From assembly GCF_024700885.2 (NCBI RefSeq), contig NZ_CP117016.1: DNA of 64,000 nucleotides. One strand, 5' to 3'. The position numbers were made by a program. Shown here one piece after another: positions 41,601 to 44,600 of the stretch. This DNA comes from Escherichia coli. Its GTDB lineage: Bacteria; Pseudomonadota; Gammaproteobacteria; Enterobacterales; Enterobacteriaceae. Each line of letters opens with the position of its first letter. Position 1 is the first letter of the stretch.

Positions 41601-44600
41601 ATCAATGTGCCAGACAACATCAACGGCGAAGTCAGACCAATATTATCCAGCGCATAACCGCCGATTGCCGCGCCACAGGTATTAGCAAGCTGAATAACCG
41701 CCACCTGAATAGACCCGGCTTTTTCTGCCTGATCGGCCAGTGAGCGGGTGATCCACGTTGACCAGCCGACAGGAACCAATGCAAAAGTTAGCCCCCAGAT
41801 AATCGCCACGCCGGTAGCAACGATTTTATCGCTTCCCCACAACGTCAGCACCAACGCACTCACAGCCAGTATTAATGGCGCGCCTGCTAAGGCCAGTTTT
41901 ACCGAACGTTTAAGAATGAACGACGAAAGCGACGTACCAATAAAGCTGGCGATACCAAAACTCAACAGCACCAGCGTTAAGCCATCCACGCCGAATCCCG
42001 CCAGGTTCATATACACCGGGCGAATATACGTGAAGAAAGCAAACTGCCCGGCGAAAGACATGAAGATGGCGAGCATCCCTGCCATCACACCCGGACGTTG
42101 TAATAAGCGGAAAGTATTTTGTTTCTGATGCGAGGGTTCGCCTGGCAGCGAAGGCAATGATTTGATAATCCAGAAAATACACAGCACGCCCATCACCGCC
42201 GCCGCATTAAAGACATTGCGCCAACCGATAAGCTCGCCTAAAAAACTGCCCAACGGTGCGGCAATCACCAGCGCAATAGAAACCGCGCCGAAGATCACCG
42301 ACAGCGCCTTCGGCACCGTACGCGGCGGTACCAGACGCATGGTCAGCGACGCCGACATCGCCCAAAACCCGCCCAGCGCCAACCCCAGACAGGCACGACC
42401 GATTAAAAGCAAACTGAATGAGTTGGCAAAGGAAACCAGCAAACAGGAGAGCGTCAGCAAAACGGCAAACAAAATAACAACGTAGCGGCGGTCAGTGGCC
42501 TGAATTGTCTGGGTAATAAACAAACTGGCAAACATTGCCACAAAGGCGGTCACGGTCACCGATTGCCCGGCAACCCCTTCCGAAATGCCTAAATCCTGGG
42601 CCATTGGCGTCAACAAACTGACAGGCAAAAACTCAACGATAATCAGACAGGCGACGCAAAACGCCACCGAGAAAACGGCTGACCAGTTCGGTCGGGTGAT
42701 GGCATCCGCGCCGCGGTTTTCGGCAATAAATTCACTCATGGTGTTACCCGTGGCATGTTTCAGGGGAAAAGCCGACCACTTTAACATTGAAATGTGTGAC
42801 GCATTTAACGTTTTTGCAACTTTTACGGTGTTGTGGGAAAAGCTCGAGGCTGCTCGAAGAAATAAAAATCATAGGGCAAGGTGATATGTATTTTCGCGAT
42901 TGTGTTGGGAACAAGGGATAAAGTATTGCACTTGGTGATATACTTTAATAACAGGACCTCAACGATATACGCGTGTTTAAAACCAAATGGTTTGCAAGGG
43001 AAGCCAGGTCTCATGCAATAACAGATGAAGAGTTGTGCCGGGCCATTTTAGAAACAGAACAAGGTAAAGCTGATGCACTTGGCGGTGGCTTTTTTAAAAA
43101 GCGCCTTCACAAAAATCGTGAGCGTGCAATTATTCTGGCGAAAGGGGGAAGCAATTGGTTTTACACGTTTTTATATGCAAAACAGGATATGTCGAACATC
43201 AATAGTCAGGAACTGGCTGGGTTTCGTGAACTTGCAAAGCATTATGCCTTCCTGACGAAAGCCCAACTAACAGCAATGATTAACACTAAAGAACTGACAG
43301 AGATCTGCTATGACTGCAAAAACTAAATTTAAAAGTCCTGCATTTGAGGCTATTCACAGCGCAGCGGCTGGATTGTCCAGCGTCAATGCTATTTCTGCCG
43401 AAACGATGCGTACTTTTGACAAAGCCTGCCTGACCAGCGTGCAAGACTTACAACCTGTTGAGATAAAAGCACTGCGGGAAAAATTAAAAGTGAGTCAGCC
43501 CGTCTTCGCTCACTATCTCAATACCAGCGTTTCAACTGTACAAAAATGGGAAAGTGGCGCTAAACGCCCCAATGGCATTTCATTAAAACTGCTCAGCATT
43601 GTGCAAAAACACGGGCTGGAGGTGCTGCTGTAAATAGAACGTAGATAATGCGTTCACCTACTGTCAGTTCCGATACCGGATGCGGCATGAACGCCTTATC
43701 CACCCTACAGGTCAGGCGCGGTCTGTAGGCTGATAAGACGAAGCGGTTTTAATGCAACCAGTGAACGCCCTCGGCAGGCTGAAAGAACGCGTTATAGCGC
43801 ATCTGAAAAGCATTAATATCCTGCATTTCAGGTTCGGTTTCGCGCAGAAAACCCAGCGCCAGCCTGACCTGAGCATCGGTAATGGGAGCGGCAAGACGGG
43901 CTTTTTGTAAAATCCGATGCCATTGCAGCAGGTTCTGTTCGCTACCATCGACAATGACAATTTGCCAGATGAGCAACACCTGCGCGGCGTTTTGCAGGTG
44001 CGACTCATCCGGACGATGCAAATAACGTAAAAATTCGTCACCGGCTGACTTTCCCATTTGATCGACCATCGACTCCACGGGTACGACATCGATATTCAGC
44101 CGATCGCTGAGACGGCGAATCGCTTTTCTGGCCCCGGATGTCAGCACCCGAAAACCAACCACAAACACTACCGCCAGCGTGGCGAGCATTATCCAGATCA
44201 TGAGTTCTCCTGCGTAATCAGAACTCATGATATCTGGAAACCCTCGCCAGTTACTAATCCACCAGAATAATCTTCAGTGCAAACAGAGCTGCGACCACCA
44301 CCACACACAGGTTCAGATCGCGCCAGCGCCCGGTGCACACTTTCATGATGCAGTACGACATAAAGCCGAGTGCAATCCCTTCGGTGATCGAGAAAGTAAA
44401 GGGCATCATCACCGTGGTAATAAATGCGGGCACCGATTCGGTAAAATCATCCCAGTTAACGCGCGCCAGGCTCGAAGTCATCAGCACGCCAACAAAGATT
44501 AACGCTCCGGCGGTTGCGTAAGGAGGAACCATCGCCACCAGCGGTGAGAAGAACATAACTAACAGGAACATAACGCCGACCACGACAGCCGTCAGCCCCG

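Follow-up and report, generated by a model that had tools for sequence, protein, structure and literature searches.

Among the described toxin-antitoxin (TA) systems, the one that lies closest to the locus considered here is HigB-2/HigA-2 of Vibrio cholerae (VCA0468/0469; PDB 5JA8, 5JA9, 5JAA, 8A0X), a toxin-first operon. HigB-2 belongs to PF06296, a family named RelE in Pfam (2025 review, PMC11980606), and alanine substitution of its residues R51, R64, Y82 and K84 lowers activity 170- to 3000-fold (PMC5416850). The same toxin-first order, with a RelE-superfamily toxin and a helix-turn-helix (HTH) antitoxin, is found in HigB-HigA of Rts1 / Proteus vulgaris and in HigB (YgjN)-HigA of Escherichia coli K-12, whose toxins fall in PF05015 (Rts1 type) and PF09907 (K-12 type), respectively (PMC11980606). 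MqsR/MqsA of E. coli is toxin-first too, and Salmonella SehA/SehB is likewise chromosomal, enterobacterial and HigBA-like, its toxin gene preceding that of an HTH antitoxin; a published description puts SehA at 40% identity to E. coli HigB, and its activity is inhibition of RNase III instead of mRNA cutting (PMC12817084). Here we describe a pair of small genes between nepI and yicN in a 64,000-nucleotide stretch of E. coli DNA (assembly GCF_024700885.2, contig NZ_CP117016.1; hereafter, the window), which very probably constitutes a chromosomal type II TA operon of the HigB-2/HigA-2 class. We make this assignment because a Pfam match above threshold, the predicted fold, the catalytic residues, the HTH homology of the antitoxin, the gene order, and the consistent pairing of the two genes all point to it.

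The original prediction, a reading of the window's letters alone, had placed a HigB/HigA-like pair between nepI and yicN at 42973-43633, made up of two small overlapping open reading frames (ORFs) of which the upstream encodes a basic protein of 117 amino acids (aa), and the downstream a 107-aa protein with a C-terminal XRE-type HTH. The ORF listing of the window returns both frames at these coordinates, opening with GTG and ATG, respectively, and the toxin-first arrangement is supported by the profile, fold and context evidence given below. The genes and their overlap are as follows:

42973..43326, + strand: higB-2-like toxin gene, 117 aa from GTG or 119 aa from 42967, identified by PF06296, fold match and aligned residues
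43310..43633, + strand: higA-2-like antitoxin gene, 107 aa, with a conserved N-terminal segment and a C-terminal XRE HTH
43310..43326, + strand: 17-nt overlap of the toxin and antitoxin frames, from the ORF coordinates

The overlap suggests translational coupling, and is of similar extent (17-23 nt) between the called genes in Citrobacter, Salmonella and Pantoea; among the best loci of a genome scan, tblastn alignment ends range from 13 nt overlapping to 29 nt apart. Both products are basic, the toxin with an isoelectric point of 9.2 (19 K+R vs 14 D+E) and the antitoxin with one of 9.7. The genes are adjacent, small and co-directional on a single strand, an arrangement from which co-transcription as a type II operon would be expected. 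In E. coli strain 1190, to which the TA region of the window is 100% identical, RefSeq annotation places nepI at 41555-42739 and yicN at 43749-44201, both on the minus strand, and so confirms the position of the pair between them. The same annotation, by PGAP, labels the toxin as 'type II toxin-antitoxin system RelE/ParE family toxin' and the antitoxin as 'helix-turn-helix domain-containing protein', and the pair is thus already annotated automatically in public E. coli genomes.

The toxin scores 131.8 bits against PF06296 (gathering cut-off 27), with an E-value of 1.9e-38 which puts the match far above chance, and the alignment covers toxin residues 1-111 and profile positions 3-120 of 120. 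PF06296 is the sole family returned at E<=0.1, with neither PF05015 nor PF09907 reported for the toxin in the Pfam search, and no profile match points to a non-TA family for the pair. HigB-2 itself, in a sequence identical to PDB 5ja9_C, scores 34.5 bits on the same profile. An AlphaFold model of the toxin, built with 34 homologues as input (mean predicted local distance difference test score, pLDDT, 82; predicted template-modelling score, 0.72), is predicted to adopt a RelE/BECR-type fold, in which helices at the N-terminus pack against an antiparallel beta-sheet. When this model was compared with the PDB using Foldseek, the first four ranks were all occupied by V. cholerae HigB2 chains (probability 0.99-1.00, template-modelling score 0.51-0.60, ~20% identity), followed by HigB1 of Mycobacterium tuberculosis, with YoeB at rank 13 and RelE at rank 25.

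The catalytic residues of HigB-2 are also in place. A search of 1.84 billion proteins returned 2185 relatives of the toxin at E<=0.001, from which distant representatives of the family were drawn, and in the resulting 33-sequence alignment, which bridges to and includes HigB-2, residues K42, R44, R51 and K70 of the toxin are invariant. The mutagenized HigB-2 residues R51, R64, Y82 and K84 fall on toxin R44, R51, Y68 and K70, such that the Arg/Arg/Tyr/Lys set is shared between the two proteins, along with the Pfam family and the best fold match in the PDB. The precise label is accordingly HigB-2/HigA-2-like, and not Rts1-plasmid HigB-like, as the Rts1 and K-12 HigBA systems differ from the present pair both in toxin family and in antitoxin architecture.

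The antitoxin carries a Pfam HTH_3 domain at residues 52-96 of 107, as had been predicted for its C-terminal half, and among solved structures V. cholerae HigA-2 is nearest to it (phmmer against the PDB, E=8e-10), residues 46-102 aligning with HigA-2 38-94. The two antitoxins are of about equal size, and in both the homologous C-terminal HTH is preceded by a non-HTH segment, although phmmer leaves the N-terminal segments of the two proteins unaligned. Among 31 paired sequences, the N-terminal 45 residues of the antitoxin are strongly conserved, with A14, I15, H16 and D37 invariant, and in an AlphaFold model of a toxin-linker-antitoxin fusion the region of approximately residues 9-28 (two 10-residue blocks) reaches pLDDT 92-94. 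In this model, residues ~9-28 form a confidently predicted helix, which would fit a toxin-binding helix like that of HigA-2. The HTH also resembles the C-domain of MqsA, yet the antitoxin falls short of the cut-offs for MqsA under both PF15731 (26.1 bits against 30; PDB 3fmy and 3gn5 at E ~0.01-0.02) and TIGR03830 (41.0 against 61.8), and for NadS under NF041265 (41.3 against 60). Its single Cys means that it lacks the CxxC zinc domain of the MqsA type, and the toxin is not MqsR. We therefore reject membership of the MqsA or NadS families, on the basis of these sub-threshold scores and the missing zinc finger. A known anti-phage defence system was also considered, and rejected, as PADLOC gave no match for the toxin and only generic HTH matches for the antitoxin.

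Pairing of the two genes is maintained far beyond E. coli. When a single genome was scanned for each species, relatives turned up in 442 species representatives, and in all 80 of the 80 best of these loci, a full-length antitoxin homologue lies immediately 3' of the toxin on the same strand. The order nepI, TA pair, yicN recurs in several species of Klebsiella, in two of Citrobacter and elsewhere in Escherichia; in Salmonella the pair adjoins nepI, and in Pantoea it is flanked by a pabA-like gene and by fic. That the pairing is kept while the context differs is what is expected of a type II module. Relatives at ~50-58% identity are also found on 142 plasmid records, mainly from Rhizobiales and Pseudomonas and 72 of them predicted to be conjugative, with the proviso that two of the top matches in the plasmid collection are Mb-sized records and probably chromosomes. 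A candidate phage-borne copy was discarded, the single 'phage' match being a 515-kb contig of Salmonella Infantis, and not a phage. Across genera the antitoxin is ~80% identical and the toxin ~68%. Within the nepI-linked lineage the flanking genes change more slowly than the pair, as illustrated by K. oxytoca and K. pneumoniae, between which identity is 74% for the toxin and 77% for the antitoxin, vs 90% for nepI and 91% for yicN. By contrast, the copies carried by Pectobacterium, Edwardsiella, Erwinia and Serratia share 88-97% identity among themselves, from which we deduce recent horizontal spread in that group.

A separate observation concerns 13 representatives of the Acetobacteraceae (L091, L094-L104 and L106), which come from at least eight genera, including Acetobacter, Gluconobacter, Gluconacetobacter, Asaia, Acidomonas and Endobacter. 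In all 13, the toxin aligns by tblastn over the same query range at 57% identity, with E-values of 1e-38 in 12 and 2e-38 in one, and the antitoxin is 60% identical in 12, L103 reaching the end of its locus. This uniformity suggests a single mobile copy that has spread very recently.

Upstream of the toxin gene lie two further elements which would be consistent with autoregulation:

42919..42947, + strand: candidate operator, inverted repeat TAAAGTATTGCAC / GTGATATACTTTA, from a repeat search, with core TTGCAC-N4-GTGATA at 42926-42941
42936..42944, + strand: extended -10-like element TGaTATACT, from direct reading, overlapping the right operator arm

The core of the candidate operator is the most conserved non-coding feature in an upstream alignment that spans 15 loci and at least eight genera, with GCAC-N4-GTG-TA invariant or nearly so (consensus TAGCAC-N4-GTGCTATA), and the E. 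coli palindrome is less perfect than the Citrobacter version. GTGcTATA is likewise conserved across genera, in the general form TGnTATAnT. The -10-like element may form part of a promoter; a consensus promoter scan makes no call at this site, and there is no good -35 hexamer there. An inverted repeat lying over a -10 element resembles the autorepressed promoters of type II TA operons, and could be bound by the antitoxin. The scan gave one consensus match within the toxin gene, where 1.9 are expected by chance, and we accordingly reject an internal antitoxin promoter; a scan for intrinsic terminators 3' of the antitoxin found none.

By analogy with V. cholerae HigBA-2, the free toxin would enter the ribosomal A site and cut mRNA under translation by means of R44, R51, Y68 and K70, and the N-terminal ~45 residues of the antitoxin would wrap around and neutralise it. 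A dimer formed through the antitoxin HTH would bind the inverted repeat and repress the operon, and loss or proteolysis of the antitoxin would free the toxin and lead to growth arrest.

Several points weigh against this interpretation. HigB-2 was not recovered when the PDB was searched with the toxin (phmmer) or with a profile of 34 sequences, both of which returned chance matches only, and an hhalign comparison with the HigB-2 sequence alone gave a weak score (E=0.081). The link to HigB-2 thus depends on the Pfam model, the fold match at ~20% identity and the bridged alignment, and the failure of plain PDB searches marks the toxin and HigB-2 as distant members of one family. The toxin of the enterobacterial clade has six residues fewer than HigB-2 in the lysine-rich beta2-beta3 loop, replacement of which impaired HigB-2 activity (PMC5416850), and Y68 is Phe in many members of the family in the alignment. 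A RelE-superfamily fold is also no guarantee of RNase activity, as is evident from Salmonella SehA, a member of another HigB family which inhibits RNase III (PMC12817084). No experimental paper was found on the pair, its enterobacterial orthologues, the combination of nepI, yicN and toxin, or six RefSeq protein accessions, and we infer toxicity, RNA cleavage, neutralisation and operator binding all by analogy with the V. cholerae system. Lastly, an ATA start codon and a V40F substitution cast doubt on the toxin being made or active in this particular strain, where it may be poorly expressed.

The last of these points underlies the most serious alternative, in which the module is decaying or silenced, the toxin being inactive or not made here, and the antitoxin persisting as a repressor or anti-addiction factor. 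We regard this as possible, if short of probable. The relevant features lie immediately upstream of the annotated toxin start:

42954..42957, + strand: Shine-Dalgarno AGGA, 9 nt 5' of the ancestral start (ACAGGA hardly varies in the alignment across genera)
42967..42969, + strand: ancestral toxin start position, ATA here; most carriers, and other genera, have ATG

Homologues begin MR(V/I)FKT from an ATG that lies two codons 5' of the GTG in the window. This ATG is present at the ancestral position in 45 of the 74 paired loci of the genome scan (the 80 best loci minus six that were set aside), and in all 14 comparison loci that align at the ancestral start in the upstream-region alignment. Among E. 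coli genomes, exact matches to a 59-mer number 466 for the ATA version and 287 for the ATG version, the remaining carriers differing elsewhere in the 59-mer; of 17 sampled E. coli genomes, 13 have ATG and four ATA, the latter comprising strain 1190 (that of the window), an O157:H7 strain, YDC107 and HS-02, whose record, discussed below, is unreliable. PGAP places the toxin start at the GTG (42973), and does so even where the ATG is present, and database toxin proteins from ATG-bearing strains, for example NZ_CP032515.1 (L006 929-937), probably lack two N-terminal residues. As initiation from AUA in E. coli proceeds at ~1-2% of the AUG level (bioRxiv 10.1101/063800), the output of toxin in the strain of the window is probably much reduced. 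The toxin encoded there further differs by V40F, where at least 90% of homologues have Val, and by Q47K, neither of which occurs in the 16 other sampled E. coli alleles.

Lesions of other kinds are found elsewhere in the family. The toxin of E. coli TR01, which bears the ATG, is interrupted by W62stop and flagged as a pseudogene; frameshift-like variants occur in P0005, P0093, P0096 and P0104; and truncated toxins stand beside a full 107-aa antitoxin in Mixta theicola (42 aa), Lonsdalea quercina (61 aa) and Winslowiella iniecta (78 aa), these last three loci being orphaned antitoxins of the family. Taken together, the ATA, nonsense and truncated alleles indicate that attenuation or decay of the toxin is recurrent, and the better conservation of the antitoxin across genera fits the same pattern. 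Against decay in this strain, however, the toxin frame is open and retains all four catalytic-site equivalents, the GTG two codons 3' could still initiate translation, and HigB-2 itself has Leu at the position that corresponds to V40F. Moreover, the presence of the ATA allele with an open frame in ~466 genomes, O157:H7 included, shows that this is not simply a fresh pseudogene.

A second alternative is that the pair is a genuine TA system whose toxin has a target other than ribosome-bound mRNA, as SehA has in RNase III and ParE in gyrase. Targets do diverge within the RelE/ParE superfamily (PMC11980606, PMC12817084), and the toxin differs from HigB-2 in its low overall identity, in the shortened beta2-beta3 loop, and in a longer C-terminal extension, predicted in the model to comprise two additional helices and a strand. 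We nonetheless consider a different target unlikely, as K42, R44, R51 and K70 are invariant in the family, HigB-2 included, and lie on HigB-2 residues that mutagenesis proved to be needed for activity. SehA, for its part, falls in another family and is 40% identical to K-12 HigB, and neither the Salmonella PF06296 homologue P0035 nor the window toxin has residues that match its key ones (Y53, D61 and H88 among them); identity with SehAB, and with it the implied inhibition of RNase III, was rejected on these grounds.

A more speculative reading concerns the neighbouring gene. The pair is divergently joined to nepI, a purine-nucleoside efflux gene, in Escherichia, Klebsiella, Citrobacter and Salmonella, and the candidate operator of the pair lies 5' of the nepI start codon by ~190-200 nt. 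The nepI-linked lineage might in that case represent a domesticated TA system, and not a selfish cassette, in which the antitoxin co-regulates nepI, translation arrest by the toxin is coupled to nucleoside efflux, and the recurrent weakening of the toxin (ATA start, nonsense alleles) is part of the domestication; we consider this quite improbable. The least tenable alternative, that there is no TA system here at all and that an XRE-family regulator simply lies beside an unrelated small gene, could draw on the lack of any NCBIfam model naming the toxin, on NCBIfam matches to the antitoxin that are all below cut-offs, and on the lack of a toxin match in PADLOC, but is scarcely credible given the strong PF06296 membership, the best fold matches to a solved toxin, the pairing in 80 of 80 best loci, the plasmid-borne relatives and the conserved operator-like repeat.

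The V. cholerae system resides in a superintegron, whereas the nepI-yicN pair occupies a fixed site in the core genome. Alignment with a K-12-like genome delimits the variable segment:

42833..43674, + strand: variable cassette, 842 bp, comprising promoter, toxin, antitoxin and a 41-nt 3' tail

Of 5426 complete E. coli genomes, 1716 carry the cassette, in each case as one chromosomal copy; K-12 and BL21(DE3) lack it. The comparison with K-12 for which the original prediction had called thus shows that the pair is accessory, and not part of the E. coli core. In K-12-type genomes, 42 nt (GCTTGAGCTGGAGTTAAGATCGAAACGGAACAGGGCAAAGAT; L001 1734-1775) stand in place of 42833-43674. This filler was considered as a possible remnant of the cassette, and rejected, since its similarity to the window and to the Citrobacter, Klebsiella and Salmonella loci is no greater than that of shuffled sequence. 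The non-coding stretch beside nepI can be aligned between E. coli and both Klebsiella and Citrobacter, and the sharing of the nepI-yicN site across genera suggests long residence of the cassette with repeated losses, rather than a recent insertion; approximately two thirds of E. coli strains, K-12 included, are now without it. One cassette of only 79% identity, in HS-02 (NZ_CP172818.1, L019 3001-3886), was set aside, as it contains many runs of A, C and G and a toxin which is frameshifted according to PGAP, and looks like an assembly or base-calling artefact and not a divergent allele.

The cassette is bordered on its 3' side by a repeat which the original prediction had also reported:

~43675..43745, no strand assigned: repetitive extragenic palindromic (REP) / bacterial interspersed mosaic element (BIME), two inverted REP-like units, bordering the cassette and outside it

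The element itself is real, whereas the interval first given for it (43665-43735) is ~10 nt off when judged by K-12 alignment. It is extragenic, lying between the antitoxin gene and yicN, contains a 10-bp hairpin (CUACAGGUCA...GGUCUGUAGG), and is present in K-12-type genomes that lack the cassette. As befits such an element, the 75-nt segment 43672-43746 is found at a median of at least 29 places per genome, in 5425 of 5426 E. coli genomes.

Other parts of the window also merit brief mention. On the far side of nepI, at ~21457-41353, lies a yicS-nepI island that is absent from this place in K-12, as judged from the strain 1190 annotation and K-12 comparison. Among its genes are iatC, which encodes an inverse autotransporter and is 12.9 kb long, eilA, for a regulator of the HilA family, and translocon, tip and chaperone genes of a type III secretion system (IpaD/SipD-like, YopB/SseC-like and SycD-like). 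At ~16879-17181, a short internal piece of a rhuM-family gene stands after tRNA-Sec (selC), and looks like the scar of an island once integrated at selC. Two hypothetical proteins of 419 and 160 aa, encoded at ~52806-54960 between ilvN and uhpA, have no Pfam match at E<=0.01. The strain 1190 annotation also places tisB, which encodes a type I TA toxin unrelated to the higBA-2-like pair, at ~58786-58875.

The pair is an uncharacterised member of a well-known kind of TA system, and introduces no new mechanism or class; its position beside nepI across genera, and the widespread ATG-to-ATA start allele, make it mildly notable. For annotation, the two genes may now be named higBA-2-like, which goes beyond 'RelE/ParE toxin' and 'HTH protein', with the qualification that the O157:H7-type allele, which the window shares, has lost the toxin ATG. 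More broadly, the locus offers a natural example of a TA module that has been fixed at one site across enterobacterial genera, and lost or weakened within E. coli, and as such could serve studies of how these modules decay.

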